A stretch of DNA of 64,000 nucleotides from Sarea resinae (taxonomy: Eukaryota): NCBI GenBank assembly GCA_026026165.1, contig JAPEUD010000064.1:62001-126000 (forward strand). The letters are read 5' to 3'. The stretch's first letter is position 1, and each line of letters starts with the position of its first letter. A model generated the notes under the pieces. It did not search any database and was not told where the DNA came from. It saw nothing but the letters and a program-made list of their open reading frames with translations. Positions 40,608-63,242 of the stretch are shown one piece after another. The position numbers and the translations under genes were made by a program.

Positions 40608-41304
40608 ATGTCGCAAAGCAAGCCCACTCTTCACCATCTCAACGTATATCACTCTCCCGTGCGTGTGCGAATCCAATGCTGAAGACCTTTCCCCGCAGCA
40701 CTCCCAATCACAACGTGTCCTATGGCTTTTCGAAGAGCTAGGCGTGGACTATGACGTCAAATTCTATTCCCGCCAGCCCGTAACATTCCGCGCTCCGCCC
40801 GAGCTGGCCACAGTCCATCCGATGGGGAAGAGCCCCACGCTCGTCACCGCCGACGGACGCGCCATCTCCGAATCCACTGCCATCATCACGTACATCCTCC
40901 GCACATATGACACGGCCGGTCGATTCAGCGCGGCGGACTGGATTCTCGACGAGGAATTGGTTTCATTTGCCAGCTCCACCCTCGGTTCGATGATCATGCT
41001 GCAGCTCTTCAGCGACATGACCGACAAGACGCGGCCGCGCTCCCCAATCGCAACTGCTGCTTTCAAGCAGCAGTTGACGTTCCTGAGCAACGTGCTGGGC
41101 GACAAGGAGTGGTTCTCCGGTGACCATCCGGGCCGGGCAGACTTCGTGCTCAGTTTCCCGTTCGATATGATTGCACAGCGCAAATATGTGGATTTTGATA
41201 CCGAGTACCCGCAGCTCGCAAAATACATCAAGAGATACGAGGCGAGGCCCGCCTGGAAGAGAGGCTTGGAGAAGGGAAATGGATACGATCTATCGGTGTT
41301 CTAG
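40608..41304 (+). CDS. Glutathione S-transferase (GTT1-like); intron 40644-40698
   Basis: MSQSKPTLHHLN|HSQSQRVLWLFEELG, VHPMGKSPTL, AISESTAIITYI, GRADF, RYEARPAWKR. Confidence 0.92.
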
Positions 41305-42299
41305 ATGAGGCGGATTGTGAAGAAGGTCATCACCCAAGTACATAGATTAAATCGCGACGTTCTCCTCTCAATTGCTGCTCTCTGTGATACTTTTTCCGGT
41401 CAACCTCAGTCTTTCACAAATATGGTTCGAGTATCAGTCTAGATTGGCCGGTTACATGACTTCCAAGTTGTACCCGCAGAGACAGACGTTCGTACCTAGC
41501 TCTCTACCGATTGCCGTATCGTTCCGTACTCCTCAGTACTCCTTGGTACTTTGCAGTACTCCGCAGTACACGGTCCTAACTATCGATCGAGATCCGCATG
41601 GCTATCTAATCTACAAGCTAATCAGATTGATCTGACACCCGACACAACTCAATGTACCTCAATCCCGCTCTCTACTCCCTTCCCCCCTCCTCCAGCTCTC
41701 TACCTTACCTCAGTAGTGGACGTAAGGCAGGTGAGGCAGGTAAGATAGGTAGGTAAGCCGCCACCTTGATTAGTCGACGGCAATCCCGAAGCTCGTGTCT
41801 GGCGGGCGCTATGGCTACAGTGCACAGCGCCATTCCCTTACCTTACCTACCTACCTTACCAACCTGCTGTTTTCTTTCGGCTAGGGCTGGAAAACGCCTT
41901 AGCCGCCTTGCGTTGCCACTTTAGTGGCAGCGGGAGCGGGACTGCATGGCTTGATGGGAAGTATCGCACGCTGCTTATCCAATGGTTACCTTTCCCACCC
42001 CTCTGATTCCCTTGCGAGCGACAGACAGACAGACAGACAGACAGTATATTGGGTGGGGGCTCCTGAAGTGTATCGGGTGAATGTATATGATTGAGGTTTT
42101 AAACAGATTCGACGAGAAGAGAAGAGGAGAGAATGGATCCCTTTCTTGGCATGTGAAGCCATGTTTCTGAACCAGCAAAGAAATCATGCGCTCTAGAGGA
42201 GAGAACTTGGGACGCGGCTCTCCGGACCACCATGCTTTCTGTTTGCTTCACTTGGACTTCATCTTGACTCAGGCTCTTGATCGTTCCTAGGTACTCTGT

Positions 42300-42379
42300 A
42301 TGTTTTGCAGCATGGTCTATTCAAACTCTGTCTCATTGTGTGTTCTTCTGCTCTCCATGTTTTGCAGCATGGTCTATTC
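42300..42379. repeat. 23-bp direct repeat ATGTTTTGCAGCATGGTCTATTC (42300-42322, 42357-42379)
   Basis: Direct reading; just downstream of the hydrolase stop. Confidence 0.9.
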
Positions 42380-42413
42380 GAGCTCTATGTCTATTCTCTA
42401 GGTTCTAGAGGTT

Positions 42414-43229
42414 CTACTCCCTCAGCGCGCCCGTTTGTTTTGCAAGGTCGAAAATCTCCTCCGCAACGGCCGAAACGTCCTTGCTCTTGAGCGGCACTCG
42501 GTGGTCACCATCCCATTCGACCAGCCTCGTGCTGCCCTTCTCACAATACTGCTCCAGCAGCCGCCGATGCAGGTCCAGTCCCTGGTCGCGCATTCCATGG
42601 ACGTGAATTGTCGGTAGACGCAGGATGTGTTCTCGTTCTTCGAAACTATGCTCGTTGGGGAAATTCGAGAACCCCACGGTGATCTCTGATGCATCCAGCA
42701 TCGTCGGCGTCATCACGAGGTCCGGATCCAGCGAGACCAACGGTGCCCGCCCGGCTAGCAGTACGGCGAAGCGGTAGTTCGTCTTAGCTCGGTGCTTGCC
42801 CAGTTTCTCCGCCCGGATCTGCTGGCGAAACAACAAGCTTGCGCTCAGCAGCGCCCCTTGGCTGAATCCTAGCAGGGCAACCCATTCGCCGGTGGCGCCT
42901 TTGCGGTCATCCTCCCTCATAGCGGCTAGCAGAGACTTCTCGATCTCGTCAACGGCAGATTTGGCATCAATCTCTGGATGCTCAGGCAGCCAGCGCAGCC
43001 AGCGCCGGAAGGGGGCACGATCTTTGTAGACGACACTCACGCCGGGACCAGGCTGAGAGAGGAAGGGCGCGTCTGTGAAACATAGCCGAAACTTGGACTC
43101 GAGTTGGGCCACCAGAGCTCGAGATTGCGTGCGAAAGACTTGGGCATTGACGCCACCGCCGTGAAGACACAGTATGCGGGGTAAGTGAAGCGTTGAATCT
43201 TCTGTTTCTTGGGGTCTTCTCGTAGCCAT
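42414..43229 (-). CDS. FSH1-family serine hydrolase (CitA/AfoC/MrPigG-like PKS-associated esterase)
   Basis: LPRILCLHGGGVNAQVF, GFSQG nucleophile elbow, PTIHVHGMRD, WDGDHRVP (Ser-Asp-His triad). Confidence 0.93.
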   Translation of the reverse strand: MATRRPQETEDSTLHLPRILCLHGGGVNAQVFRTQSRALVAQLESKFRLCFTDAPFLSQPGPGVSVVYKDRAPFRRWLRWLPEHPEIDAKSAVDEIEKSLLAAMREDDRKGATGEWVALLGFSQGALLSASLLFRQQIRAEKLGKHRAKTNYRFAVLLAGRAPLVSLDPDLVMTPTMLDASEITVGFSNFPNEHSFEEREHILRLPTIHVHGMRDQGLDLHRRLLEQYCEKGSTRLVEWDGDHRVPLKSKDVSAVAEEIFDLAKQTGALRE

Positions 43230-44837
43230 GCTAAAGGGATGACGTTTAGCGTGGGAGGAACGACCAGCTTTCGGGGTCCTCTGAATAACGAACGTGAGGA
43301 TGTTCTTAAGCAGCGAGGCAGTCTAGCCATCGATGTTCAACGCCAGGGCTTCGCAGCGTCGTCAGCTTTCCTTGCAATCGCGATAGCACGTCCGCGGCCC
43401 CGTAAGCCATCATCGTCATTCCTTGGCTTATCGATGATATATTTTGCATGCTTTTATTGGGTTGCGGCTTTTGTCAATGTCTGGGAGTCCCTATCTCGCC
43501 GAGCCACTTTGGAAGCGCTCTATTGATTAACTCGTCAACCTGCACCATACGCCGATGACGATAAGACGGACAGGGGGAGAGTGGGGCGAGGCGTCCGCAT
43601 ATGCCATAGCTCATCTCATTCCGTCAGGGACCAGAGTTGCCTAGATTGACTGCTTGATATTCTCACGTAAGCAGGGCCATATGCGGACTGACACAGTAAT
43701 ACTGCGGTGGGCTTGTTTCGAAAGAAGATCGAAGAAGGCCTCCTTTATACGTGAAATGTTGGAATACATGCGGCTGCCAAGGTTCAGGTCTAGGCGAGAT
43801 GTCAACCAATCTAGATGGCGAGTCCGAGCTCTCATCCTGGTCGATCCTCATCCGTGGTCGCAGCCGCTGCTGATGGTTACACAGCTATCGCTCCATCCCA
43901 CCTTTCATGTCCCACAACTACCTATGAAGTAGCTCGCAGGGCTGGTACATCGGTATGGGGTATGGGGTATCGAGCATCGCGGGATCGGTTCCGGGTGAGA
44001 TGAATCAAATACGATTGGAAATTAGTATGAAGTACTACACTTGAGCTGCAGGTCAGCAACGCCTGCACAGCCCGCATCGCCTCTCCCGTCCTGGACGGGA
44101 GATGGTAGAGCTGAGATAACGATGTTGCACGAAGCCGATGTACTTGATGCTTTGTACACGCGGTGGTATATCGCAGCAGACAGGGGTAGGACGGGGTACT
44201 TCTGCCTCTAGTATCGCTAGCACTGCATCACCCCGGTATGATCAACATGAGAGGGGTCAAGCAGCCTACCTTTAGAGACACACTTACATGATCGTCAGAG
44301 ATCACTGGGGATGACCGACGAGTTTAGGTGATCACCTACCGAGGTCACAACACTCAGATCCTCGACCATCCATCCATGGATGCTCGAGGATCTCGCGCGT
44401 GAGGTCCTCGAGAGCGGTTGGGACTCCACCATAGTGCTGGGGAAAGAGGTCTATCCCACGAACACCGGGGCAGTCGACATTCAAACGTCTCCTTACGCCC
44501 GTCTTTCCCATTCAGCACTGGGATGAAATTCGCCTCACGTAGCCGAACAGGGGCTGGATGGTGGTGTCCGGCCCCATGATCTTGGCTCTCTTGGCTGTTG
44601 GCTCTAGCCGCCGATTTGACTAAAGACCCTGCCTGCCCTGGCGTCTGCAGCGCCCTCGGCAGCTTCCCGCTGATGCTACCATCCACCATCACGACACGAC
44701 CACTCATAGGCACGCACGCACACGAAGCCCAGACACGGGCATCACTACCGCTCAAAGGTTGCCTCTTTCCTACAATGCTTCTCCCAGCCAACACCTCATG
44801 ATTTTCGTCTGCACACCTCTCTGTCGTTGGTATCGTC

Positions 44838-47543
44838 ATGACTTCTTCCGAGAAAACGGTATGCGTCCCTATTCACGTCCACTCTGTCCGTTAATCAATC
44901 CAAAGCAGCATGGGCATTGAAATGCTGTTCGAGACAGAGTCTCTGCTGCAGCGGTGCCCCGGCTGATTGTGCTTTGATAGTCACACACATGGTCCAACTC
45001 TGATGTCGCTTGTACTCGCTGTCGGGAAAGGAAGATTCGCTGTGGACGCGAGAGACGACAGTGTGCAAATTGCAAGCGCGACGGTGTCGAGTGCGAGTAT
45101 TCTGCCCCAGGAAAGAGAGTCAATCATGTCAAGCTGCTGTAAGTTGGGCTCCGCGACTTCATTCCTACTTTACCGACACCACATTGTGTGTCGTGATACC
45201 CCATCAACGTCGTGAGGCAATAGCACCATCTGACGGATAGCCCTATCTCTCTATATTGCAGATGCGACAATGTTGCAGGTCTTGAAGATCGTTTGATCAA
45301 CATCGAGGGCGGACTATCGCGTTTGATGACATTCATCCAGGCAAGCGGAAGTCAAGGTTCATCCGACTGCTCCATGACAGAAGATGGTACCTCGACCAAT
45401 TCCATCGAGGATGACCAGCCTGATGAAGGTGACCCATCTCTACCGCCAAAAGATCGGCACATTGTTCGCAGTCAAGGCGATCCGGTAGATCGTTACCACG
45501 GGCCCGGGTCTTTATTTACTCTATGTAATGACTTCCGCGATATTACTTTAACAGAACTGAAGAATGGGAGCCCCCCCCCGGATAGCGACGTGTCCCATCA
45601 AAGCAACGCGCCAGATAGATTGTATGAGGGCAAAGCTCTCAAAGAGCTCCTCACTCGCATATGTCTTGAAGCCAGCACTGAGGAGTCTCCTTTCGATCTC
45701 CAATCCGACCACATTCCAATTCGACTTCCCCCGAAGCAGTTTCTTCTCGTCGTTCAAGCACAATTCTTCCAGCAAGTCAACTACGCGACGGATCTCTTCG
45801 TCAAATCTCGCTTCAGGGCCAATGTGGAACGTCTCTACAGTCGGCCTTTTACGCCTGCCGACGAAGCCTGGGCTATCTGCTTGAAGATCATTATCCTTCT
45901 CGTCCTTGGGTCCGAAGTTCTCACCCAAAGTAACGATCCACTCTTCGGGTCGCAATTCGCCTTATCTTTCCTCTCATCAGTCCGCACAGCATTAAGCAAT
46001 CCTCGTTTCCTGAACGCTCCAAAATTAGCCAATGTCCAAGCTTTGACCCTTCTGGTGAGTACTGTGGAATTGTATTGATGCCAATGCTTGCATCGTAACG
46101 GAGCTAACTTTAATTTACAAGAGTATCGCAGCCCGACAATATTATCCACCAGGGTTTGCGGAGTCGATCCTCGCACAAGCTTGTGTACTTGCTCGAACGA
46201 TGGGCCTTCACCAAAGTCACGCAGTGCAAGACGGCATCTGCCCTGAGGAAGCCCAGGAACGCATCAATGTCTTCAGATCATTATACCTCCAGGACAAGAG
46301 CTCTCTGATTCTGCGCGGGTCTATTTGCTGGCTGCCTAGCTTTGACTGCGGTCTCTCATCGGAGCTTAACCAAAGCGTTTCTACCTCCTCAGACTGGACG
46401 GCCCGAGTCCAACTTGCAGGGCTACAAGATGAGGTTTATCGCTCATTTCACTCAGCAATGTCCAAGAGGCCATCTTCAGCTAAGCAAAAGGGCGCGCTGT
46501 CACGTATCGAACAGGGCCTCAAAGATTGGGCCAAGTTTCACAGGATCTTCGGCAACCCTCCTGCTGGTACCTATGTTGCCGATTTGCAACTGGAATTCCT
46601 AGCTACTCGTATCAGCGCCTTTTCTGGGAGTCTGGAACCGTGTCACATCCTTCAAGTATTAGATGACTCACGATTAAGCTGTTTGTTGCTACTCGTCTCT
46701 TATGGAAAGTATGACCAGTCAATAACCAAGCGACTCGATGCCCACTTGCCCTCGAGAAGCCTGCCGAACCTTTCCGGCAAGAAACGTCACATCCAGTCGA
46801 GCAGAAAGAATGACAGCTCTTCATCTGACGCTGCTCGAGAAAATAGTAATGCCACCGAACCTTTACCCATACAACTCCACGGCCTATTAGATGCGTTCTC
46901 AGTACCTGCATTCTTCATTCTCACCAAAAATGTCATGTGGCCCGTAATGGAGCGTGACGATTCTCGAGCAGAAGATGATCTTGATTTGTTGCAGAGAGTC
47001 TCTGCTTGTTACAGAGAATATGACTCCAGGGTTCAGACAAGCAATCAGATTCACAAAGTCGGCTGCGCTTTTGAAAGGCTTCTAGAGGTCGTCGGGCTTA
47101 TCAAGTCGCCTCGATCGTCGCCGGACATGCATCAGAAAGACAGTGGGCACAGCCCGTTCAGTGGGCAAATTTCATTTGGTGGGCCGCAAGGCCTCCACGA
47201 CTTTCACAATGGGCCTGTCCCATCGGCTTATGCCATACCCCCGCTGTCAATGGACGAATGCTCAAACAAGAGCGGCTCCAGGACGACATCGAATACTCCA
47301 AGCGTCGGTACCATGACCGAATTGCCTACTCCCAGAGAGCCGCAGGAGATGGGCCAACCGTACGACAGTTTTGGACAACGTCCCTTTCCGCAAATGCCCC
47401 ACCAGGAGGATATGCGGCCACCAAACAGGAAGCGACGACTTTTGAGTGAGCCAGACGTGTGCATGGGTGATGATCCGGACTCTAGGCTGCTTTCCGACTT
47501 TCTTGCTACTGCCCCCGATATGTGCTTTGATTTTCCGACATGA
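44838..47543 (+). CDS. Zn(II)2Cys6 transcription factor with fungal-specific TF middle domain; introns 44859-44980, 45139-45261, 46055-46121
   Basis: Exon 2 encodes ACTRCRERKIRCGRERRQCANCKRDGVECEY, which the ORF track missed. Also RYHGPGSL and LAQACVLARTMGLH..EERINVFRSLYLQDK-type middle-domain motifs. All splice phases are consistent. Confidence 0.92.
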
Positions 47544-48489: not shown

Positions 48490-49353
48490 ATGGCACAGAA
48501 GACCGTCCCGTTCCCAAGTCCACCGGCGACGGGTCACGAGAAGGAAAGCGGAGAAGAAAGAGGAGGAGGCACTATGGCAACAATGGCATCTCGCTATCGA
48601 ATGTCAGAGCGCGGCTTCAACCGCTTCACTATCATCTGTGGCCCCATCGCGCAGATGCTCTTCTTCCTCTTCCTGCCGGCCTCGCTCCAACTGCCGCCCA
48701 TCAGCCCCTCCTTCACGCCCGAAGCGACCGCCCACCACTACCGCCAGAATTACACCGGCACAAAAGGCGGCATCGCGCTGATGCTGCTTTCAGGCATGTT
48801 CTGGCCCGTCTACACGGGCGGCGTCAACGGCCAGCTCGCGCGCATCCCCGGCATCAACCCCACCGTGCTCTGGGCCCAGCTCGGCGTCGGTTCGCTGGGC
48901 GGCATCTCCCTGATGGTGCCCTCGATCCTCTTCGCCACCACCATCTACCGGCTCGACCGCGACCCCGTCCTGACCCAGCTCCTGAGCGACCTCGCCTGGT
49001 TCTTCTTCTCCATGCCGCTGACGCCCTTCATCGCGCAGGACCTGCTGATCTCGTACGCCGTGCTGTCCGACCGCCGCGCCGTGCCCATCGTGCCGCACTG
49101 GGTCGCCTGGATCAACACGGGCCTTACCATGACGCTTTTCCCGACTCTCGGCGTTCACTGCGTCCACCACGGCGCCGTGGCCTGGAACGGCGCGTTGACG
49201 TTCTGGGTCGGTGCTGCCGGCTTCGGCTTGCAGGTCGGCTTGCTTGTGTTTTTCCTGCTCAAAGCCGTCGTGAGGCCCGACGATGACGACGACGAGCCTG
49301 GTGCCGCTGTGAGCGCTACTGCTGCGAGTGGCGACAGCTCTCTTGAGTCGTGA
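48490..49353 (+). CDS. Intronless integral membrane protein of unknown function within the PKS cluster (start could be 48490, 48574 or 48601)
   Basis: Very high GC3 and ~6 TM segments; motifs CGP, LPPISPS, YRLDRDPVLTQLLSDLAW, DRRAVPIVPHWVAWIN, GAVAWNGALTFW. Confidence 0.85.
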   Translation: MAQKTVPFPSPPATGHEKESGEERGGGTMATMASRYRMSERGFNRFTIICGPIAQMLFFLFLPASLQLPPISPSFTPEATAHHYRQNYTGTKGGIALMLLSGMFWPVYTGGVNGQLARIPGINPTVLWAQLGVGSLGGISLMVPSILFATTIYRLDRDPVLTQLLSDLAWFFFSMPLTPFIAQDLLISYAVLSDRRAVPIVPHWVAWINTGLTMTLFPTLGVHCVHHGAVAWNGALTFWVGAAGFGLQVGLLVFFLLKAVVRPDDDDDEPGAAVSATAASGDSSLES

Positions 49354-50378: not shown

Positions 50379-51341
50379 CTAGAACGAGCTCATAACGCCG
50401 GGCTGGATCTTCTCCAGGATCTCGCCCAACTCCTTCCACACCTTGGCCTGCGCCGTCGCTCCCTCCTCGCTCCTGACAAAGGCCGACAGCTCCTCGTTCG
50501 CGACCTTGGCGTCCGATATGTAAGCACCGTGGCTCTCCTTGCCAGCCGCCGCCGCCGCCATCAGCGCCCGACTGCCGACCTCCGTCGACCGGGCCAGCAC
50601 CAACTTCAGAAACCACAAGCCCCAGCCCGAGTCGCGCGCCAGCTCCGAGTGGCACAGGCCCGGGTTCAGCATGTTCACCACGACCCCGGAGTCCGCGACC
50701 CGCGACGCGATCTCCCGCACCGCGAGCACCTCGAGCAGCTTGGTCGTCTGGTACCGTTCGGCCATGTTGGCCGTCTTCTCGTCGTCCAGCTCGGCGAAGG
50801 TGTTGGCGGCCTTCCACTCCGGGAACTTCGTCCAGGCGTGCACCTCGCTGACGACGATACTGAGATGCGGCGGGCTCGACGAGGGGAATTCCTTGGCGGT
50901 GGCCTTGAGTTTCGGAAGGAGCAGTAGGCCGAGCAGGATGCTGCTGATGACGTTGACGGTGATGCTGCGCTCGTGCGCCTCGGCCACGCTGTACTTGGTC
51001 GCCGCGATCGCCGCGTTCTCGACCACGATGTCCAGACGTGGCAGCTGCTGGGTTACGCGGCTCGCGAACGCCTTGACCGAGTCGTAGGAGGCCAGGTCGA
51101 GCTTCCAGACCTCGCACACACCCGGTCGCTGCGTCGACGTCTCGATCGTCTCTTTCGCCTTCTCGCCCGCCTCGAGGTTGCGCACCGCTAGGATGACTTT
51201 CTTGGCGTCGAGCCGGACAAAGTGGCGGGCGGCCTCGAAGCCCAGTCCGACGTTGGACCCGGTCACGATGACGGTTTGGCCCGAGAACGACTTGGTTGGG
51301 TATTCGGGCGTGACGAACAATTGGGAGTAGAAGAAACCCAT
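50379..51341 (-). CDS. Short-chain dehydrogenase/reductase (retinol-DH-like), 320 aa
   Basis: VIVTGSNVGLGFEAA, LAVRN, LDLAS, ENAAI, catalytic YQTTK, NPGLCHSEL. True start is MGFFYSQLF at 51341; the upstream part of the track ORF is repetitive non-coding sequence. Confidence 0.93.
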   Translation of the reverse strand: MGFFYSQLFVTPEYPTKSFSGQTVIVTGSNVGLGFEAARHFVRLDAKKVILAVRNLEAGEKAKETIETSTQRPGVCEVWKLDLASYDSVKAFASRVTQQLPRLDIVVENAAIAATKYSVAEAHERSITVNVISSILLGLLLLPKLKATAKEFPSSSPPHLSIVVSEVHAWTKFPEWKAANTFAELDDEKTANMAERYQTTKLLEVLAVREIASRVADSGVVVNMLNPGLCHSELARDSGWGLWFLKLVLARSTEVGSRALMAAAAAGKESHGAYISDAKVANEELSAFVRSEEGATAQAKVWKELGEILEKIQPGVMSSF

Positions 51342-51496
51342 GCTGAGTTGATCTTGATGATGATGATGAATTCTCTGATGGTCTGAAGATTCGATCCTTC
51401 GAGAAGGGAGGTGTAAGGCAGGCACCGTATTGTGAGATATAGAAATCAAGGGCGGGGAAGGGGGGAATGGGCTGTCTGTCGCGATTTCAATCTTGT

Positions 51497-51562
51497 CCGT
51501 AAAGTCCGACTTCTCTGTTTGGCCGTAAAGTCCGACTCGTCTGTCTGTCTGTCTAAAGTCCG
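51497..51562. promoter_or_regulatory. Candidate Zn2Cys6 binding sites: CCGTAAAGTCCGACT x2 plus partial TAAAGTCCG in the SDR/PKS divergent promoter
   Basis: Exact 15-bp repeat at 51497-51511 and 51523-51537, each containing CCG-N6-CCG. CGG triplets are the canonical Zn2Cys6 half-sites. Confidence 0.55.
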
Positions 51563-52341
51563 CAAACTCCAGGAAGTGCCTGGTACTTGGTACTCTGGGC
51601 GATATGCTGGAGGCGATCAGTACCCAGTACCCAGTACCCCGTATCCAGTACTGCAGTACGAAGTACTTAGACCACTGCAGTCGTGAATATCGTCTTGGAG
51701 CGATATAGCATCGAGTATCGAGTATCGAGTATCGAGCATCGAGCATGGGAGAGGGCGAAGAAGGGATCGACGTGATCGGTGTAATTGAGGCGATTGAGCT
51801 GATCGCGGCGATATTACCAACAAGCACGAATGTCTCCCATTCCTCGCCATCGACGGACCATGGAATCACAATTAGAAGAGCATGGTAGAAGCCGGGTCAG
51901 GCACAGAATACATAATAGATAGCGTTCTCTTGAATCCATCAGATGAGGGCTGAAGGGCTGAAGGGCTAACGGACGACGGACGACGGACGGCGACATTATG
52001 GCCTTGCCCCCAAATCTTACCGGCGTTTCCTATCGTTACGACAGCGATAGCGGCCGAGCACCTCTCGGCCGCTGCAGACCCAGCTGGAAGCTTAGGTTGC
52101 AACTGGAACGGCTGCTCGGCCTCCGCAGCTTACCCTCAGCACGTATCCCAGAATGGCTCCAATCCATGGACGCATGGAACGTCACACTGCACATAATACA
52201 GACACATGGGCATTCTAGATCAAGCCTCTCGACCACATCCGCGGACTGCTCTTGATTGCCCAACTATCTATCCTATCTTGGCTGTTGCCCTCATCTCTCC
52301 ATACCAGCCGGTGAAAGCTCTGTGGACAACGCCTTCTAGCA

Positions 52342-55300
52342 ATGGCGCCCTCATCGTTTCATCATCCCTCACAAGGGACGACCATTCTTCTGTTCGGACC
52401 GCACTTCCTCTCCTTCAATCAAGAATCTTTCAATCAATTGAGATCGTTGCTACTACACACGCCAGACAATCGATGGATACTGGAGACCATTGCAGGGCTC
52501 CCGGCCTACTGGGATACTGTCTCCAAGGCTTTTCCTCGACTCCAGACGGTTCCCGGAGCGAAGCTGCTAGAGGACCTCAATGACTGGCTCGTGACGGGCA
52601 GATTTACAGACGCCTCCTTTCCTCTCCCGAATATCCTTCTAACTCCTCTTGTCATCTGTACACAACTGTCACAATACTCGAGATACCTTGAGCACGTTCG
52701 ACCAGGTTCGGAGGATGAACGTGACCTGTATACTAATTTCTCCAAACGGAATGCCGAGACCGTTGGATTTTGCATCGGTCTCTTGAGTGCGCTCGTGGTC
52801 TCCAGTTCGGCCAGTCAGACACAATTCCAGCAATATGGTGCAAATGCAGTGCGTTTGGCGATGCTTATCGGGGCGTTGGTCGATGCTCAGGAAGTTTCAA
52901 CGGACCTTTATGGCGAATCCAAGTGCTTTTCGGCAGCCTGGAATTCTCCCGAATCTGAAGCTGAGATGACTAGGATAATAGACTTCTTCCCAGAGGTAAT
53001 CATACCTGCTGCGAGAGGATTGCTTTTCCGGTACCTTGAAGCTGACCTGGCTGACCCCATAGGCCTACGTTTCTGTTTTATATGACGAGAAACGTGCTAC
53101 CGTGACGACTTCCAAGAGCACGGCTCCATCATTGCTGCAAAAACTCAAAGCAGCCGGTATCACTGTGGCAGACGTCGCTCTTCGCGGACGCTTTCACTGC
53201 CAATGCTACCGAGATGATTTGCAGCCGCTTATCGACTTCTGCGACTCACATGCCGCTTTCCAATTACCTGATGCCTCAAATCTAGCGCTACCAACCCGAT
53301 CAAATTCTGGGGGCGATTACATCGAACACGGGAGGCTTCATCATGTTGCTCTGCGATCAATACTGGTAGAGCAGTCAAGTTGGTTTCGGACTTTCGCAAA
53401 GGTACAGGCTTCGCGATTGACCGACCCCGAATCTTCCGTCGTCTCTTTCGGACTTGATCGATGCGTTCCGCCCACACTCATGCGCAAACTTGGCCCACGA
53501 GTAGTTCATGTTGCCGACAGCGAGATTGTCACACATCGACTACCTGCGGGTGTCTACGGCCCCAAGAATAGCCTGAAAGACCAGCAACATCTGTCCGATA
53601 ATGACATTGCTGTTGTTGGTATGTCATGCAAAGTTCCCGGTGCGGATGATCTTGAAGAATTTTGGAAGCTGCTGTGCGAAGGCAAGTCGCAGCATGTTGA
53701 AGTCCCAGACGACCGCTTTGGCTTCGAGACAACCTGGCGTGATGCCGACCCGAAGAGGAAGTGGTATGGAAACTTTATACGAGACCACGATGCCTTTGAC
53801 CACAAATTCTTCAAGAAGAGCCCGAGAGAACTGGCTTCCATGGACCCGCAGCAGAGACTGATGTTGCAAACTGCATACCAAGCCGTCCAGCAATCCGGAT
53901 ACTTCAATTCGCCCAATCATGACAAGCACATCGGATGCTACATCGGCGTTAGCAATGTTGACTACGAGGGCAACATTGCATGCTATCCTGCCAACGCTTT
54001 TTCGGCTACAGGAACATTGAAGAGCTTCGTTGCCGGAAAAGTCAGTCATTACTTTGGATGGACTGGCCCTGGCCTCACCATCGATACGGCTTGCTCCGCC
54101 TCCGCTGTGGCTGTCCACCAAGCATGTAAGGCTATCCTTGGTGGTGACTGCACGGCCGCCCTTGCTGGTGGTGTCAATATCATGACAAGCCCTCTATGGT
54201 TCCAGAATCTGGCAGGAGCATCATTTCTGAGCCCTACTGGGCCCTGCAAACCGTTTGACGTCAAGGCAGACGGCTATTGCAGAGGTGAAGGTAGCGGAGC
54301 GGTTTTTCTAAAGAAGTTGTCTACAGCTATCGAAGATGGCGATCAGATTTTTGGCGTCATTGCAAGTACTGCCGTTTACCAGAATCAAAACTGCACGCCC
54401 ATCACCGTTCCCAACGCAGACTCTCTATCTGATCTCTTCCGATATATCACCCGTCAAGCCCATCTCGAACCCAAGCAAATTTCAGTCGTCGAAGCTCACG
54501 GAACCGGCACTCCTGTAGGTGACCCCGCCGAGTACGAAAGTCTTCGCCGAGTGTTTGGCGGACCAATCCGCTCGAAAAGTCTGTCACTGGGATCTGTCAA
54601 GGGCCTCGTTGGCCACACAGAATGTGCTTCCGGAATCGTCGCGCTGATAAAGATGCTGCTCATGGTCCAAGTGGGCGCCATACCCCCCCAAGCGAGCTTC
54701 GATACAATGAACCCTGCTATAAAAGCTTTGCCATCAGACAATATGGAAGTCGTGACACGCCTGAAGCCATGGGATGCTGATTTCCGAGCTGCCGTTATCA
54801 ACAACTATGGTGCATCCGGCTCGAATGCCTCTATGGTGGTCACCCAATCCCCAAGACGGAACCCTAATGCTACGCAGATCTCTTCAATCCACTCTTCTGG
54901 GAGGAAGCACCCTTTCTGGCTTTGCGCACTTGACGATCAAAGTCTTCGAGTCTATTCTGCAAGATTCCGCCAGTTCCTGAAATCCAACCTCGTGTCTGCC
55001 CAAGATCTTTCCATCGCCAACCTCGCGTTCGGCGTGTCTCGTCAGTGCAATCAATCGCTTGGCCAGGCCTTGATATTTAGCTGCAGCTCAGTGGATGAAT
55101 TGGAAGAGAAGCTGATGGCGTTCGAGGACGGCATAAAGAATGTGTCATCAATTACGCGCCCATCTCCCAGACTCGTCATACTCTGTTTTGGAGGGCAGAT
55201 ATCCAAATTCATCGGTCTGGACCGACAGGTTTACGACAGCGTCAAGATTCTCCGAAGCTATTTGGACGAGTGCAATCGTGTTTTCCAGTCAATAGGACTT

Positions 55301-58300
55301 GACAGCATCTATCCAGATATCTTTGAAAGAACGCCAGTCGAAGACACCGTCAAGCTTCAGACGATGCTCTTTGCGATTCAATACTCTTGCGCAAAGTGTT
55401 GGATCGACTGTGGTATTCAAGTTGCAGCTCTTGTTGGCCATAGTTTTGGCGAACTGACGGCTCTCTGCATTTCTAATGTCTTGTCCCTCGATGACGCCGT
55501 GAGGATGATTGCAGGACGGGCACGTCTGATCAGAGACTCCTGGGGTACCGACAATGGATCCATGATGGCCGTTGAAGCTGACCTTGGTGACGTGGAAAAG
55601 TTGTTAACTGCGTCCAGCAAATCCTGCCGAGGTGAACGGCCAGCGACAATTGCTTGCTACAATGGCCCTAGAAGCTTCACGCTTGCTGGCTCAACCAAGT
55701 CTATCGAAGCTGTCTCGGAAACAGCATCTCAAAATCCCTCCTTTTCGTCGTGCATCAAGATGAAAAAGCTCAGCGTTACCAATGCATTCCATTCCACTCT
55801 TGTCGAGCCTCTTATGGATGATCTAGAGCAAGTTGCGCAGGGATTGACGTTCAGAGAGCCAACCATCCCGGTCGAACGGGCTACGGAATCAGAGTCGGTG
55901 AAAAGCCTATCTTCTAGGTTTGTGGCTGATCACATGAGAAACCCCGTGTTCTTCAATCACGCAGTACAGAGGCTCGCAAAGAAATATCCTTCTTGCATTT
56001 GGCTTGAAGCTGGCTCTAATTCGACCATCACCACAATGGCTGGTCGAGCTCTAGGGACGTCTAGCACATCTCACTTCCAACCCATCAACATTACTAGTGA
56101 CAACAGCATGCAACAACTTGCGGACGCGACCGCGAACCTATGGAAACAAGGGTTAAGCGTATCATTCTGGCCCCATCACTTGTCACAGACATCTGAATAT
56201 ACTCCTCTTCTGCTGCCACCTTATCAATTTGAGAAAGCCAGACATTGGATGGATCTCAAGAAACCACAAAAACTTGTTGATTCGGCAGTTCCACTACAGT
56301 CTGGAGAGGAACGGGCGAAAAGCCTCTGGAATTTTGTTGGATACCAGGACGATCAAAAACGTTCTGCTCGATTTCAGATTAACACAACAATCAAGAAATT
56401 TGAAGATTTCGTTTCTGGCCACACGGTTGCCCATGCAGCCCCACTTTGCCCTAGCACGCTCCAGCTTGATATTGTGATCGAAGCTCTCATGAGTCTTCGT
56501 CCTGAATTTGCAGACTCTAAGCTTCAACCGCAGCTTCAAGGTCTCGACAACCACTCTCCGGTATGCATCGACTCGTCACGTCTTGTTTGGCTGGACGTTG
56601 AAGCAAGCGACGCCGAATGCCATGTTTGGGGGTGGAAGATGGTCAGCAACGCTCAAAGTGGTTCGGCTACAACTCTACACGTGTCCGGTCAGATAATATT
56701 CCGGTCTACGGAAGACGTCCAATTCCAGAATGATTTTGCAAGATATGAGCGCCTTGTTACACACCAACGCTGCCTGCGTCTCCTTAATAGCAACGATGTC
56801 GACGATGCCATCCAAGGCCGCAACGTTTATAAAGCATTCGCAGACGTTGTTGACTATGGGGAGATGTACCGGGGTGTTCGAAAAGTTGTTGGCAAAGACA
56901 TGGAGTCAGCCGGACGCGTTGTGAAGAGATATTCTGGAAAGACTTGGCTCGACACCCCCCTCTGCGACTCTTTTTGTCAAGTGGCTGGAGTCTTTGTGAA
57001 CTGCATGACCGACAGGCTGGACAAGGATGTTTGCATCTCAAACAGGATCGAGCAGTTAATCCGCTCACCCAAGGCTAGTGTAGCCGACTCTCCACCGGAA
57101 GATTGGGACGTCTTCGCCATCCACCAACGTCCATCGGACAAGATTTTTGTCAGCGATGTTTTCGTCTTTGATCCACGCAATGGAGAATTACTGGGAGTCA
57201 TCCTCGGGATCCAATACCAGCGGGTCTCCAAAGCTGCTTTGGGCAAAGTGTTGTCTCGACTCACTCCTGGTGCAAAAAAACCTGACCCTAGCACCAATTC
57301 AACTCCCGCAAGAGCAGAAGAACCAAACACCAACGGTCATCCGCTTGAGAATGGCGTAAACGCAGCACCATCACCGGTGGCGAAGCAGCAATCCTCGAAA
57401 CCGAACATTACTGGCAAAGTCAGAGATCTATTGGCCAATATCTCAGGTGTTGAGCCACACGATATCAAAGACAATACCGGTCTCGTTGACATTGGAATCG
57501 ACTCTCTAATGGGCATGGAGTTGGCGCGCGAGATTGAGACCGTGTTCGAATGCACTTTAGACACCTCGGAACTGATGCTCCTGACGGACTTCATGAGCCT
57601 CATCAAATGCATTAAATCGGCTTTGGGAACTACAGATGACGATGCAATTCCTGAAGAGAAACCAATCACTAATGGGCTTGGACCAAACGGCCAGACTGAC
57701 CATGTAGCTTCGGCACCACCTGAAACTATGGATGAAAACCCACACGTGAACGGGTTCGCTCGGGATGCTACAACGGATGGCTTCAATAATCCCGCGGCTA
57801 CGGCTCACACAAATGGTGACTCGAAGGAGAGCCACAGGGCAGACGAAGATGCTCGTCAAGCAGCAGTTGATCAGTACATACAGAAATATACGCAAGGATT
57901 TTCTGTGCCTGTCCGGTCAGACGACAACAGCTCGCTGAGACCTTCCGGTCAAATTGTGCTTCTGACCGGGGCGACCGGTAGCTTGGGCTCTCATCTCGTC
58001 GCCCATTTTGCTGAACTTCCAACCGTGACGAAAGTCGTCTGTCTGAATCGATCTAGTAGCGCAGAGCCGGCGCTTCGTCAACGACAAGCCATGGAGTCTC
58101 GAGGGATCTACCTCGACAAGAAAGCTATATCGAAACTCAAAGTGCTCGAAGCCGACACTTCTAAGCCAATGCTGGGCTTGTCAAGCAGCGAGTACGACGA
58201 TCTCGCCAACACCGTCACGCATATTGTCCACAACGCGTGGCCGATGAGCGTCAAGCGGCCGTTGAAAGGCTTTGAACCTCAATTCCAAGTCATGCAGAAT

Positions 58301-59149
58301 CTGATCAACCTTGCGCGTGATGCATCCTGCCGACTGCCGCAGGGATTGAAGACTGGGTTCCAATTCATCTCGTCCATTGCGACTGTCGGGCTTTACCCGC
58401 TGTGGAGCGGCGAAGCCTGTGTGCCAGAGAAAAAGATGGACGTGAACTCTGTGCTGCCATCTGGCTACGGCGAAGCAAAAATCGTCTGCGAGAGGATGGT
58501 CGACGAAATGTTGGGCCAACATCCGGACTATTTTCGGCCTATGACTGCGCGTATCGGACAGATTGCAGGCTCCAAGAGCAGCGGATATTGGAACCCGGTG
58601 GAGCATCTGTCTTTTTTGATCAAGTCGTCGCAGACCTTGAACGCTCTTCCGGCCTTTGTAGGGGTATGTGGTTGCTTTGTTCTTCTTTCCCAACGAGCTC
58701 GTGTTCCGTGGCTAATCGTTGCTTGCGTCATCTAGGATTTGTCCTGGTATCCGGTCAACGACGTTGCCGCGACCCTCGCCGACTTGCTTCTCTCCGACAC
58801 GACGCCATACTCGACCTACCACGTCGAGAATCCGGCACGGCAGCCGTGGAGCGAGATGGTCTCGGTGCTCGCGGACGCTCTCAAGATTTCACGCGCGAAC
58901 ATCATCCCCTTTGACGACTGGCTCGGCCGCGTGGACGAATACCCGGGCTCGGCCGAGGAGAACCCGGCGGCCAAGGTCATGGAGTTTCTGGACGACCATT
59001 TCCTCCGCATGGCGTGCGGCGGCTTGGTCATGGACACGGCGCATAGTCGGGCGCATTCTGAGACGATGGCCTCGGCGACGCCCGTCTCGGCCGAGCTGGT
59101 CGAGAAGTATGTTTGCTACTGGAAGGACACGGGATTCTTGCGCCGGTGA
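52342..59149 (+). CDS. Non-reducing iterative type I PKS, SAT-KS-AT-PT-ACP-R (no C-MeT), ~2222 aa; introns 52996-53062 and 58664-58735
   Basis: SAT GFCIG; KS DTACSAS, EAHGTGT, KGLVGHTE; AT GHSFGE, NAFHS; PT GHTVAHAAPLCP; ACP GIDSLM; R domain LLTGATGSLG, HNAW, SSI, GYGEAK. Confidence 0.96.
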
Positions 59150-60100: not shown

Positions 60101-60251
60101 TGTACGTCTTTGCTGTTGAGGTAATTTCTGAGAAGAGAAAGAAGAAGCAAGACCGTGGTGTCTCAGCAGATGGCCTGTCGGATAGACCTAGCACCGATCC
60201 ACGACCCCACACGGACCCCCTCTCTACTATTACTGCCACACGACCCCGTTT

Positions 60252-61254
60252 CTACTCCTTCTGCCACACAGCCTTGTTCTCCTCGGCAAACGTATCGAAG
60301 CTCTTGGGCGGCCGGCCCGTGACCTGCTCGACCACGTTGTTCGTGCGCGTCTCGAAGCCGCCGGCGGTCGCGACCTCGAGATTGGTGAAGAAGCGCGCAA
60401 AGTGCTCTGGCAGCCCGGCGGCGATCAGCCCGTCGTACCGCTCCTGCTCGCTCAGCTTGACGTTGGCGATCTTGCGCCCGAGAGCGTGGCTCAGTTTCGC
60501 GGCGAGCTGTTTTCTCTGCTGTTAGTCTTTTCGCGGTCTGTATTACGTCTACTCTCATCAGGATTGAAGAAGAAAAAAAAAAGACGTACATCATCGTGGG
60601 TCAAGAGCTCCGGCCCCAGGATTCGGTAGTCGGTGTTGTGCGGTTTCTTGTCGGTCAGGGTGCGGAACGCCACGGCGGCGATGTCGGAGGCGCTGACGAA
60701 CGGGATCTGGCCCTCGCCACAGGCCGTGATGATCTTGTCCTGGTCCCTGACGATGAAGCGGGCCGCCTCCTCGGTGTAGTTTTCTTTGAGCGTGGGTCAG
60801 CCATCGGATCTCTTGTGATATGATACTACTCACCCATGAACCAGGTCGGACGGAGCACGGCATAGTCGACGCCTGTGTCGAGGAAGTGCTTCCAGACGTT
60901 GCCGACGCCCTTCTTGCCGGGCTCGGCGGAGCTGCCGGCCACCAGCACGAAGCGCTTGATGCCATGGTGCTTGATGGCGTAGTCGACAAAGGCATTCATC
61001 GACGTCTCGGGCTCGTCGACGACCGGGTTCATCATGTAGACGGCCGAGATGGACTCGCCGCCAGGGAAGCGGTGCTCGAACGGCTTCGAGTACGTCGAGG
61101 CGTCCAGCCAGTCGAACTTGACCGCTGGCATGCCGGCCGGAGCGGCGTCGGGTCCGCGGCGCGAGGCCAGCAGGAAGGGTAACTTGGCTTCTTGCATCAG
61201 ACGGGCCACGCGCACCGAGGTCTTGCCGGTGCCGCCGGTGAGGAGGGTCGCCAT
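60252..61254 (-). CDS. NmrA-like NAD(P)H reductase of the EasG/FgaFS (agroclavine/festuclavine synthase) type; introns 60784-60833 and 60507-60589
   Basis: LLTGGTGKTS, FLLASRRG, FDWLD, VLRPTWFM|ENY, ITACGEGQIPFVSASDIAAVAF, GPELLTHDD|LAAKLS..LGRKI, VEQVTGRPPKSFDTFAEENKAVW. Confidence 0.88.
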
Positions 61255-62325
61255 GATTGATTGTGTAGGTTTGCCGGATATCTCGAATTGGTACGAAGGT
61301 GAAGATGTTGGAAGCGTGAGTGAGTAAGTGATTCGGTGAGTGCGTGGATGAGTGAGTGAGGTTTCGACCGTCGCGGGGTCAAGAGGAAGCACGTCGCTTA
61401 TGTATTCGACTCAGAATGTGTCGATGATACCCATTCACTGTGGATTTGATTGTTGAGTGTTCTCGTCACCACTCACTACGTCACTGAGGACCGATAAAGC
61501 CGAGTGGTCTGCTTCCGTTCAGGGTCAGGCCGCAATGAGGTTGCAGGTGAATGAGGTCGTGGCGGGGAGAGATCGACTGTTTACGGACACTACAAAGACA
61601 CTACCGTTGCTTCCCTGCCTGGCGTAACTTGTACGGGTTACCTGGACCCTAAGTCTAAACGACGGAGGGGGGGAAGGGGGGGGGGATCTGCCACCAGATC
61701 TGCGAGCTACCATCAGGTAGTGGGCATCAGTACATAGTACTACGTAGTAGGAGTGCTAGGAGTACTAGGAGTACTAGGAGTACGAAGTACATAAGGTAGG
61801 TTTGTTGGTTGTTTTCCCCTGGTGTGACCCGCCCGGATCCTCGGCCATGGCCGACCGCCGAAATCCAGGTATGTATCCCCGTCGGACTTAGGACCGCCTG
61901 AGAGCGAGATCTATCTGCGAGAGCTGCCCCCCGTCGCTAGGGCTGACCCCGAGCACAAGAAGGGTTTAGTCGCCCTGCATCCTATGAGTACCTAGTTTGC
62001 CCTGCTTACCCTCTAACCGACCGAGTTAAAAGGCACACAAAGGGACACACAACAGACAAAGAGCACCGCTGCACCGCTGCACCGCTGCACGACTCGTTAC
62101 TCGGGCGCCGACAGGCGAAGGCATCGCTGCATCGCGAGCCGAGCCAGCAACAATGCGCCTGAGGTGACGTGCGTCGACTCGACCATCTCGAGCATCACCG
62201 CCGTCGAGCCTCCGCCGTTGCATTCATGCACGGGCTTGTTGATAAGATGGCGAGCGTCCATCGTGTTTCTTTGTCCTTTCATCTAGATGTAATTGAATCT
62301 CTCAGCCTCGAAGACCATACCCATC

Positions 62326-63242
62326 ATGATCGTGACCCCCCGCTTCCATCTCTTTGAGATCGCCGACCAGTCATGGTGTCCCGAGTGGCTGCGCGAGTAC
62401 TCCCATCTGGCCCGCATGCAGATGTGGAGGACGCAAGCGCCCGGCACCAAGGGCTCCCCCGCGACCCAGGTCTGCGATCTCCTTCTCGAGAACCTCCCCG
62501 ACGCCTCGTCGTTCACCTTTATTGATTCCTGCGCCGGCGGAGGCGGCCCAACCCCCATCATGGAGGCGACCTTGAACCAAAAACTGCGTTCCCGGGGCCG
62601 TGGGCCGGTGCGATTCGTCTTGACCGACCTCTGGCCGTCCATTCAGCTGTGGGAAGCCATGACGAAGCGCAGCGAGAACATCTCCTACATCTCAACGCCT
62701 GTCGATGCCACCAAAGCCATGAGGCTCGCGGAGCCTGGCAAGAAAGAGTGCCGCATCTTCAATCTGTGTTTTCACCACTTTGACGACCCGGAAGCCGCTA
62801 CGGTCCTGCGCAGCGCCGTGGAATCGGCCGATGCCTTTGTGTATGTATCAATCTGCCTTCTCTGGATGGATATCTCTAATACGAGCACGACAGCATCTTC
62901 GAGATGACCAATCGAAATCTCTTCGCTTTCCTGAACACCACCTTCATTGTGATATCGCCTTTCCTGACCACCCTGCTCTGGTTTCGGCACTCTCTGCTCC
63001 ATCTCATCTTCACCTACCTCATCCCGCTCGTCCCGCTGTTCTTTGCCTTTGACGGCTATGTCTCATGCATTCGAGGTCGCACGTCTGACGAGCTGACCGA
63101 CCTCTTGCGTAATCAGCCTGATCTCGACCTGACTCAGTGGCAATTCAAGAGTGGCGATACCATGGTTCTGCCACCCTTTGGAGTCATGTATTGGTACATT
63201 GGCGTCAAGCAAAAGAAGTCGGGTGAGGCCACTCGAGGCTAG
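62326..63242 (+). CDS. Class I SAM-dependent methyltransferase-like protein with hydrophobic C-terminal region; intron 62841-62893
   Basis: RFHLFEIADQSWCP, FIDSCAGGGGP (motif I-like), FVLTDLWP, VDAT, FHHFDD, IFE, TYLIPLVPLFFAFDGYVSCIR. Confidence 0.75.

Follow-up and report, generated by a model that had tools for sequence, protein, structure and literature searches.

The locus is a real, uncharacterised fungal polyketide cluster, and its synthase is of the citrinin/azaphilone family minus the methylating domain. It lies in a 64,000-nucleotide stretch of a Sarea resinae MAG (the whole of which is called the window here) and runs from the start codon of a glutathione S-transferase (GST) gene at 40608 to the last base of the stop codon of a methyltransferase-like (MT-like) gene at 63242. 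We lean towards reading it as a secondary-metabolite cluster with a working core of four genes, which encode an FSH1-family hydrolase, a Zn2Cys6 transcription factor (TF), a short-chain dehydrogenase/reductase (SDR) and a group VII non-reducing polyketide synthase (NR-PKS), and for which an aldehyde pathway is proposed. The pathway probably yields an unmethylated 2,4-dihydroxy-6-(oxoalkyl)benzaldehyde, which the SDR reduces. A literature search on Sarea resinae polyketides gave no link between this cluster and a product.

The preliminary description had listed eight genes, six of them in three divergent pairs, FSH1(-)/TF(+), SDR(-)/PKS(+) and EasG-like(-)/MT-like(+), and gene models and Pfam matches confirm all of them in place (Table 1). 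Every one of the eight reading frames is open, the introns run GT..AG, and the genes are contiguous and intact. Housekeeping genes occupy 1-40 kb, to the left of the cluster. The absence of visible oxidative tailoring genes, prenyltransferases, acyltransferases and transporters also held up: none of the FMO, P450, dioxygenase, prenyltransferase, acyltransferase and MFS families turned up when Pfam was run on open reading frames (ORFs) of at least 100 aa from 38-64 kb and, with the cut-off lowered to 45 aa, on those from 43.2-50.4 kb and 59.1-64 kb.

Table 1. Genes and divergent promoter regions of the cluster, in window coordinates
Feature	Position	Strand	Basis
Glutathione S-transferase, 213 aa, 2 exons (40608-40643, 40699-41304)	40608..41304	+	GST_N_2 1.2e-15, GST_C 1.3e-08
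FSH1-family serine hydrolase, 271 aa, single exon, CitA/AfoC/MppD-like	42414..43229	-	Pfam FSH1 1.5e-29
Divergent FSH1/TF promoter region; TCGAGCATC-like sites at 43970, 44357, 44362, 44379, 44384	43230..44837	.	Motif search
Zn2Cys6 TF, 804 aa, 4 exons (44838-44858, 44981-45138, 45241-46054, 46122-47543)	44838..47543	+	Zn_clus 1.9e-09 on 44981-45139
Small multi-pass membrane protein, 287 aa, DUF4386-like	48490..49353	+	Sequence family and Atlas
Classical SDR, 320 aa, single exon	50379..51341	-	adh_short 1.1e-18; motifs
Divergent SDR/PKS promoter region; 7-bp tandem repeat 51707-51748	51342..52341	.	Motif search
NR-PKS, 2222 aa, 3 exons (52342-52995, 53063-58663, 58736-59149)	52342..59149	+	Pfam, motifs, alignment
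EasG-family NAD(P)-binding reductase, 289 aa, 3 exons (60834-61254, 60590-60783, 60252-60506 or 60252-60518)	60252..61254	-	TIGR03649
Divergent EasG-like/MT-like promoter region; TCGAGCATC-like sites at 62179, 62188, 62204	61255..62325	.	Motif search
Methyltransferase-like protein, 287 aa, 2 exons (62326-62840, 62894-63242)	62326..63242	+	Atlas feature similarity, IDSCAGGGG motif

The PKS gene model agrees letter for letter with a database protein (P0001) and has the domain order SAT-KS-AT-PT-ACP-R. Pfam recovers SAT (1.1e-12), KS (8.5e-77), AT (7e-30), PP-binding (3.6e-11) and NAD_binding_4 (2.3e-25), and the catalytic motifs GFCIG, DTACSAS, HGTGT, GHSFG, SGHTVA, GIDSL, GATGSLG and YGEAK are intact. 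The PT domain, which had no match in Pfam and none in the PDB at E<=0.01, is putatively placed by alignment to MrPigA and a His motif. By its sequence the synthase is a group VII enzyme; it is 61% identical to MrPigA (P0491 = ALN44200.1) over 1061/1744 aa, from SAT through ACP, and 62% identical to MpPKS5 (P0046 = AGN71604.1). The assignment of an R-domain NR-PKS with an FSH1 hydrolase to the citrinin/azaphilone/asperfuranone lineage is thus borne out by the MrPigA match.

That this PKS has no C-MeT is supported by Pfam, by BLAST with a C-MeT query and by alignment. No methyltransferase family is among its 10 Pfam families at E<=0.01, and the alignment jumps from the pre-C-MeT linker straight to the pre-R linker, as in a clean excision; the second ACP is gone as well, and the nearest relatives carry both. 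The C-MeT query gave no BLAST match in 6 of the 120 listed homologues and only a 52-aa match in P0002, and the same loss is seen in 6 of the 119 listed homologues other than the window's own PKS. In the tree, the C-MeT-less proteins fall into two starred clades (98 and 99) that nest among C-MeT-bearing ones, and the loss has been kept in 7 proteins, including named ones from Sarea, Trapelia and Talaromyces. The missing domain does not place the PKS outside the known range: a review of azaphilones gives a C-MeT to only “some” group VII nrPKSs, and orsellinaldehyde is listed as a group VII tetraketide product.

The FSH1 hydrolase, whose Pfam match was obtained on the raw ORF 42414-43322 of the minus strand, carries the motifs GFSQG (with Ser123) and GDHRVP (with His243). 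In 10/46 fetched metagenome loci a relative of it (45-65% identity) occurs no more than 10 kb from a PKS relative, which in each case is a C-MeT-bearing one. CitA is known to raise the titre of CitS and requires its Ser-Asp-His triad to do so; by analogy, the Sarea hydrolase likely acts as a PKS helper. The exons of the neighbouring TF were joined by eye with the frame open, and its 21-nt first exon is putative; Fungal_trans had no match in this protein.

The SDR, identical letter for letter to a database protein (P0121), has the motifs TGSNVGLG, NAAI and YQTTK. Orthologues with 69-81% identity sit on the PKS contigs of five of the six other C-MeT-less homologues: the SDR-search matches ranked 2, 4, 7, 14 and 19 are on contigs of the same length as PKS contigs (29007, 61779, 111160, 3906961 and 49786 bp), and in three of the five this equal length is the sole ground for co-residence. 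In Trapelia (consecutive locus tags MMC30_008869 and MMC30_008870) and Talaromyces (consecutive accessions KAH8704876.1 and KAH8704875.1), the SDR adjoins the PKS. An SDR of this type occurs in none of the 24 C-MeT-bearing metagenome loci. By these comparisons, no tailoring gene other than the SDR has been shown to accompany the C-MeT-less PKS. Proteins of its family, 60-75% identical, are also common across fungi, Lipomyces yeasts among them, and the SDR may therefore have a general role.

In the proposed pathway, the PKS would extend an acetyl or short acyl starter with malonyl-CoA into a poly-beta-keto chain that stays unmethylated, and the PT domain would close one ring by a C2-C7 aldol reaction, as group VII enzymes typically do; the azaphilone review ascribes this cyclisation and reductive aldehyde release to the group. 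The C-terminal R domain, an NAD(P)H thioester reductase, would then release a 2,4-dihydroxy-6-(oxo)alkylbenzaldehyde, a tetraketide to hexaketide or longer. The hydrolase may boost PKS productivity in trans, like CitA, AfoC and MppD. The SDR might reduce either a side-chain ketone, in a step of the MppA/MrPigC or CitE type, or the aldehyde itself, to give a stabilised alcohol; MppA/MrPigC reduce the reactive benzaldehyde, and CitE reduces C-3.

The remaining four genes are less firmly placed. Membership of the GST (Pfam matches on the raw ORF 40591-41304) is doubtful. The membrane protein, which may be a core gene, had no Pfam or NCBIfam match; its sequence is itself in the Atlas, where Actinomycetota account for most of the nearest clusters (feature score 0.95, TM 0.76), and 821 representatives of its family are found at E<=0.001, some of the fungal members carrying names. 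The three exons of the EasG-like gene match TIGR03649 ergot_EASG at 4.4e-44, 1.2e-22 and 4.1e-22 and jointly cover profile positions 2-287 of 287; the model and the corresponding database protein (P0241, M1819_005886, 293 aa) disagree in 4 residues where exons 2 and 3 meet. The MT-like protein had no match in Pfam, NCBIfam or the PDB. It has an IDSCAGGGG motif and, by hydropathy, two predicted C-terminal membrane helices at about residues 181-231, and its name comes only from an Atlas feature score of 0.99 to Ascomycota cluster(s) auto-named “methyltransferase domain-containing”. At best, the GST, the EasG-like reductase and the MT-like protein are lineage-specific additions.

A motif, TCGAGCATC, chosen post hoc and derived from the FSH1/TF and SDR/PKS promoters, hints at co-regulation by its clustering in the three divergent promoters. 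These make up 3,679 bp, or 5.7% of the window, and hold 13 of its 39 TCGAGCATC-like sites (at most one mismatch) and 4 of its 5 exact copies. In the FSH1/TF promoter, an 18-nt inverted repeat at 44356-44393 holds four of the five sites, and the 7-bp repeat of the SDR/PKS promoter creates five TCGAG(T/C)ATC sites and four overlapping TCGN5CGA palindromes. Since the motif comes from these two promoters, the EasG-like/MT-like promoter is an independent test; it has three sites in 1,071 bp vs about 0.4 expected, as well as short tandem repeats at 61744-61788 and 62063-62090, and both of its genes may belong to the cluster after all. There is one site in the GST promoter and none in that of the membrane protein gene. 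Transcription of the cluster is possible: contigs of a close relative from a wood-decay metatranscriptome, 90-99% alike, lie on the FSH1 gene, the 3' end of the TF, the SDR and the EasG-like gene, though none spans an intron and the RNA run could contain DNA.

These promoters speak for a wider reading, which we hold to be unlikely, though the least so of the alternatives: all eight genes would form one co-regulated pathway, whose aromatic polyketide product would be reduced two or three times and possibly methylated or handled with glutathione. The contiguity and pairing of the genes fit this, as do the metatranscriptome contigs on the EasG-like gene and the homologues of this gene and the SDR in Penicillium macrosclerotiorum, which are five locus tags apart (N7462_009395 and N7462_009400). 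Against it, beyond the post hoc choice of the motif and its scarcity before the GST and membrane protein genes, stands the gene content of relatives. None of the 89 EasG-like matches is on a contig equal in length to any of the six C-MeT-less PKS contigs, and the best Trapelia match (76%, MMC30_008820) sits on a contig of 66,468 bp rather than the PKS contig (61,779 bp). The wide occurrence of the EasG-like family in fungi at 55-69% identity, brown-rot basidiomycetes among them, points to a general role. In none of the 46 fetched PKS loci did tblastn (E<=1e-5) give a match to the GST, TF, membrane protein, EasG-like or MT-like sequence. The “unusual tailoring set” of the preliminary description is therefore not a conserved unit; only the SDR co-travels.

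The right border lies beyond the window, as the MT-like gene ends 758 bp before the window does, on a source contig of 147,628 bp; a “mainly reductively tailored” product, as had been suggested, cannot be concluded for this reason. The cluster could run past 64000 and include oxidative genes (e.g., an FMO of the AzaH/MrPigN type), giving an azaphilone-like or otherwise oxidised product. The identity to the Monascus azaphilone synthase agrees with this, and two relatives' loci (L006 and L007) have P450, FAD oxidoreductase, 2OG dioxygenase and MFS genes within 10 kb. Yet Pfam revealed no oxidative gene in the window up to 7 kb to the left or right of the PKS, and in a close relative (L002) only FSH1, TF and PKS precede housekeeping genes. 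Moreover, characterised azaphilones need the FMO, and of the core genes named in the review (AzaA, B, C, D and H) only A and C are matched here; we regard such an extension as improbable, slightly more so than the eight-gene pathway. A decaying or silent relic, with the C-MeT loss as part of pseudogenisation, is very hard to credit. A whole domain and the second ACP are indeed missing, and the leftover linker is more diverged in the window's PKS than in P0002, P0003 and P0016. However, all eight frames are open with every checked catalytic motif intact, the same loss is kept in both starred clades, the partner SDR is conserved in five PKS-linked orthologues, and the RNA-library contigs of the close relative lie on four of the genes.

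The cluster can be compared with several known systems. The Sarea EasG-like reductase matches the ergot_EASG profile over its whole length, and proteins named festuclavine or agroclavine dehydrogenase are among its matches (41-63% identity). Unlike EasG/FgaFS, the agroclavine and festuclavine dehydrogenases of ergot alkaloid clusters, it is accompanied by no other ergot-type gene among the ORFs scanned with Pfam in the window, and the proteins most similar to it (55-76%) are unnamed and come from many non-ergot fungi. The citrinin cluster of Monascus and Penicillium (CitS, CitA-CitE and CtnA) shares a group VII R-domain nrPKS, an adjacent serine hydrolase, a Zn2Cys6 regulator and a short-chain dehydrogenase; set against Ser122, Asp207 and His235 of CitA, the catalytic Ser and His of the Sarea hydrolase are in place. 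CitS has a C-MeT, in contrast to the Sarea PKS, and the Sarea window is without a CitB-type non-haem iron oxygenase, a CitC oxidoreductase and a CitD aldehyde dehydrogenase.

In the Monascus azaphilone pigment pathway, the similarity extends from the synthases, both with C-terminal R-domain release, to the FSH1 hydrolase (MppD/MrPigG) and a reductase, which in Monascus (MppA/MrPigC) acts at the benzaldehyde stage. The Sarea PKS differs in lacking the C-MeT and second ACP, and the window in lacking the FMO (MppF/MrPigN), acyltransferase, FAS pair and MFS transporter. PkfA (AN3230) of the Aspergillus nidulans orsellinaldehyde/aspernidine pathway is not known to carry a C-MeT and makes orsellinaldehyde. 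The pkf cluster is described with P450 and reductase homologues, whereas the Sarea window has no P450. By description, PkfA is likewise an nrPKS with a C-terminal R domain, and its orsellinaldehyde resembles the proposed Sarea product as an unmethylated aromatic aldehyde of group VII.

The NR-PKS of this locus appears to belong to a subfamily of citrinin/azaphilone-type synthases without a C-MeT domain, which includes named proteins of Sarea, Trapelia, and Talaromyces and is consistently paired with one particular SDR. The surrounding genes make up a small, defined orphan cluster that lends itself to testing, in a member of a little-studied class of resin-dwelling fungi. Eight intron-aware gene models were built between 40.6 and 63.2 kb of the window, and all eight reading frames are open. 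The preliminary description had named the same eight genes, six of them in three divergent pairs, and the models bear out both the intact genes and the pairing. Its statement that tailoring and transport genes are missing also stands, with no FMO, P450, dioxygenase, prenyltransferase, acyltransferase, or MFS transporter found by Pfam in the ORFs scanned between 38 and 64 kb. The PKS and SDR models are exactly identical to database proteins; for the PKS this is "MAG: hypothetical protein M1819_005885 [Sarea resinae]" (100% identity), encoded on a 147,628-bp contig.

Gene models of the cluster, in window positions, with the evidence for each name
Gene	Position	Strand	Evidence
GST	40608-41304	+	Pfam
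FSH1 hydrolase	42414-43229	-	Pfam FSH1, 1.5e-29
Zn2Cys6 TF	44838-47543	+	Pfam Zn_clus; 21-nt first exon putative
Membrane protein	48490-49353	+	DUF4386-like resemblance
SDR	50379-51341	-	Pfam
NR-PKS	52342-59149	+	Pfam domains
EasG-family reductase	60252-61254	-	TIGR03649, all three exons
MT-like protein	62326-63242	+	Atlas feature similarity only; putative label

The left border of the cluster lies at or to the right of the GST gene, because housekeeping genes occupy 1-40 kb along with a retroelement fragment (housekeeping: NUDIX/CFIm25, dephospho-CoA kinase, M16 insulinase, BCS1, UPF0047, and SIMPL, all by Pfam). Within that region, positions 4000-12000 have a G+C content of 0.46-0.48 compared to about 0.53 elsewhere and contain a retroviral-polymerase SH3-like fragment (PF25597, 7.1e-16) at 6735-7439 on the reverse strand; this stretch is probably a decayed retrotransposon. 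An ORF of 172 amino acids between the FSH1 and TF genes (44357-44872, reverse strand) was dropped as a gene, since it has no Pfam match and overlaps the first exon of the TF and an inverted repeat.

In the database copy of the window's PKS (P0001), Pfam matched SAT (to residue 217), KS (398-764), AT (927-1194), ACP (PP-binding, 1670-1733), and the thioester reductase domain R (NAD_binding_4, 1850-2097). The active-site motifs of SAT, KS, AT, PT, ACP, and R are all in place, including GATGSLG and YGEAK. The PT region gave no Pfam match and no PDB sequence match at E<=0.01, and a PT domain is predicted there because the region aligns with MrPigA and carries the SGHTVA motif. The identity to MrPigA (ALN44200.1) is 61% (1061/1744 aa). 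MrPigA and MpPKS5 (AGN71604.1) share a cluster at the 90% level, and an azaphilone review names both as characterised azaphilone synthases. In the tree of the KS-AT region, P0001 nests among proteins bearing both C-MeT and R. Its domain make-up and its sequence placement both assign it to group VII of the non-reducing PKSs, the citrinin/azaphilone/asperfuranone clade.

No methyltransferase family is found in P0001 by Pfam. Six of the best 120 homologues (P0001, P0003, P0016, P0041, P0103, and P0118) had no BLAST match to a C-MeT query, which matched P0002 over a 52-aa linker only and the truncated P0067 over 163 aa. When the region from ACP to R is aligned, the linker just before C-MeT is joined directly to the pre-R linker "ARQAAVD.Y..KYTQ.F" in the C-MeT-less proteins, the excised stretch being about 400 aa, and the "TILEAFG" of the pre-C-MeT linker is still kept in P0002. 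The second ACP is missing in most of these proteins, with a decayed remnant in P0016. The FastTree phylogeny of the KS-AT region (120 rows) places the window PKS with P0002, P0003, and P0016 in one clade (support 98, starred) and P0041, P0103, and P0118 in another (support 99, starred), both nested among C-MeT-bearing rows. At a minimum, C-MeT status takes two changes on this tree, with one change possible. Together, the BLAST results, the alignment, and the tree argue that the absence of C-MeT is a derived and conserved state. It is also inside the known range of group VII and does not disqualify the enzyme from that group, since the azaphilone review gives C-MeT to only "some" members.

The SDR is a partner of the C-MeT-less synthases. 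Matches ranked 2, 4, 7, 14, and 19 in the SDR search lie on contigs identical in bp to the PKS contigs of P0002, P0003, P0016, P0041, and P0118; among the matches listed there is none for P0103, so SDR and PKS appear to go together in five of the six other C-MeT-less homologues. The two genes carry consecutive locus tags in Trapelia coarctata (MMC30_008869, MMC30_008870) and consecutive GenBank accessions in Talaromyces proteolyticus (KAH8704876.1, KAH8704875.1); for the other three homologues, co-residence is judged from identical contig size. Relatives of the SDR also occur in Lipomyces yeasts (P0128, P0130, P0138, P0150, and P0190) at 66-75% identity, a level seldom expected of a tailoring enzyme confined to one cluster.

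The FSH1 hydrolase is a partner in the wider family. Its gene is 9 kb from the PKS in the window, and the protein has GFSQG with Ser123, plus His243, in place; the catalytic triad of CitA is described as Ser-Asp-His. Fold, residues, and position fit a PKS-assisting serine hydrolase of the CitA/AfoC/MppD type. A metagenome scan with the window PKS gave 46 loci, with the C-MeT region in 24 and a full-length C-MeT-less gene in none. When the eight window proteins were compared to these loci by tblastn, 10 of the 46 had an FSH1 relative no more than 10 kb from the PKS; nine of these are C-MeT-bearing, and three (L002-L004) are near-copies of one another. Three loci were scanned with Pfam: L002 has the order FSH1-TF-PKS followed by housekeeping genes, and the flanks of L006 and L007 hold P450, FAD oxidoreductase, dioxygenase, MFS, and other genes. 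By tblastn, the window TF did not match the Zn2Cys6/Fungal_trans regulators located next to C-MeT-bearing relatives. At E<=1e-5, the GST, TF, membrane protein, SDR, EasG-like, and MT-like proteins matched none of the 46 loci, of which none has the full-length C-MeT-less gene. The EasG-like search, which covered proteins of at least 246 aa from 1,281 candidates, placed 0 of 89 matches on a contig of the same bp size as any C-MeT-less PKS contig, and the best Trapelia relative (MMC30_008820, 76%) is on a contig other than that of the PKS.

The SDR-search contigs, the metagenome loci and their flanks, and the EasG-like search thus point to two conserved units: among C-MeT-less synthases the PKS is paired with the SDR, and in the family at large it is paired with FSH1, frequently alongside a TF. 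The eight genes had been proposed as one cluster, and conservation alongside the PKS upholds this for the SDR and FSH1 and fails to do so for the GST, TF, membrane protein, EasG-like, and MT-like genes.

Scored singly against TIGR03649, the three EasG-like exons reach 151.1, 80.7, and 79.0 bits over profile positions 2-141, 143-206, and 208-287, a sum of about 311 bits set against a cut-off of 256.4 that applies to the full protein. Exon 1 drew only weak KR-domain matches from PDB, at E of at least 0.014. At one splice acceptor, the gene model and that of the database disagree by four residues. The second intron has two candidate acceptors 12 nt apart (60507-60518); the database uses the upstream one, adding QRKQ, and the TIGR03649 profile runs gapless through the protein with the downstream one. 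In Penicillium macrosclerotiorum, an SDR homologue (P0141, N7462_009400, 67%) and an EasG-like homologue (P0294, N7462_009395, 59%) share a scaffold, with locus tags that differ by five, and in Aspergillus glaucus a scaffold of 237,505 bp carries an EasG-like homologue as well as a partial homologue of the membrane protein. A recurring SDR/EasG-like/membrane-protein neighbourhood that is independent of the window-type PKS is possible.

The MT-like protein has no Pfam, NCBIfam, or PDB sequence match, with nothing below E 0.059 for exon 1 against PDB. In the Atlas, its feature score is 0.99 for clusters that are auto-named methyltransferase and 0.83-0.85 for bacterial ones carrying Methyltransf_25/11, and a single-sequence AlphaFold model of exon 1 has a mean pLDDT of 37.8, too low for use. 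The membrane protein family numbers 821 representatives at E<=0.001. Its nearest Atlas clusters, by features and predicted structure, are DUF4386-like and come mostly from Actinomycetota, and fungal relatives at 38-58% identity occur in Neopestalotiopsis, Penicillium verhagenii, and Aspergillus ochraceoroseus.

Comparison of the FSH1/TF and SDR/PKS promoters for shared 13-mers yielded the core TCGAGCATC. Four of its five exact copies in the window are within the three divergent promoters. Allowing one mismatch at most brings the count to 39 sites, compared to a shuffle mean of 24.3 and maximum of 37 (0 of 100 shuffles reach 39), and 13 of the 39 are inside the 3,679 bp of these promoters. The EasG-like/MT-like promoter, which was outside motif discovery, has three such sites; those of the SDR/PKS promoter arise from a 7-bp tandem repeat. 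The shared element is a post hoc lead that hints at co-regulation. The 7-bp repeat (51707-51748) consists of about six TCGAGTA/TCGAGCA units with four overlapping TCGN5CGA palindromes, and in the whole window TCGN5CGA is not enriched (23 matches versus 22.1 expected). One DNA run contains the stretch and may be its source; contigs of this run break around 51707-51809. Two further tandem repeats lie between the EasG-like and MT-like genes: about five copies of the 9-bp unit GTACTAGGA at 61744-61788 and about three and a half copies of the 8-bp unit GCACCGCT at 62063-62090.

In a wood-decay metatranscriptome run (X2), 5% of sampled words were present, a share that is uninformative on habitat. 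Contigs 90-99% alike fall on FSH1, the 3' end of the TF, the SDR, and the EasG-like gene. No contig crosses an intron, and the run may include carried-over DNA. Within the 20-kb stretch, the gaps in coverage (most of the PKS and the gene of the membrane protein) are not counted as evidence of silence.

From what is known of these families, a group VII PKS would carry out C2-C7 cyclisation of the first ring and reductive release to a benzaldehyde, the FSH1 hydrolase would assist it, and a discrete reductase would ketoreduce the reactive keto-aldehyde in the manner of MppA/MrPigC or CitE. In a more elaborate reading, ammonia or an amine would condense with the keto-aldehyde of the C-MeT-less PKS and SDR, giving an iminium of the isoquinoline or isoindoline type, which the EasG-like enzyme would reduce and a membrane-anchored MT-like protein would methylate, all co-regulated through TCGAGCATC. 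Those relatives of the EasG-like protein that carry names are agroclavine and festuclavine dehydrogenases from ergot pathways, enzymes that reduce an iminium. Citrinin-type keto-aldehydes are known to give aminated shunt products. If true, a resin-dwelling fungus would have an alkaloid pathway of polyketide origin that belongs to a so far undescribed kind; we consider it very improbable.

No published description of the window's cluster was found in the literature searched; the background is drawn from parts of PMC8596599, PMC5968754, PMC5386248, PMC5591372, PMC9146135, PMC12268544, and PMC7961326. The azaphilone core set, as given in the review, is AzaA, AzaB, AzaC, AzaD, and AzaH. Judged by what lies in the window, the locus is neither a citrinin nor an azaphilone cluster, and the defining oxygenases, acyltransferase, and hrPKS are absent: the AzaH-type FAD monooxygenase and AzaD-type O-acyltransferase are missing from 38-64 kb by Pfam, as are the families of the CitB non-haem iron oxygenase, CitC oxidoreductase, and CitD aldehyde dehydrogenase from the window. 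The EasG-like gene does not lie in an ergot alkaloid cluster here, Pfam naming no other ergot-type genes in the ORFs scanned across the window. CitS of the citrinin cluster bears C-MeT, in contrast to the PKS of the window. By analogy, the locus would act like the first steps of the citrinin and azaphilone pathways minus methylation.
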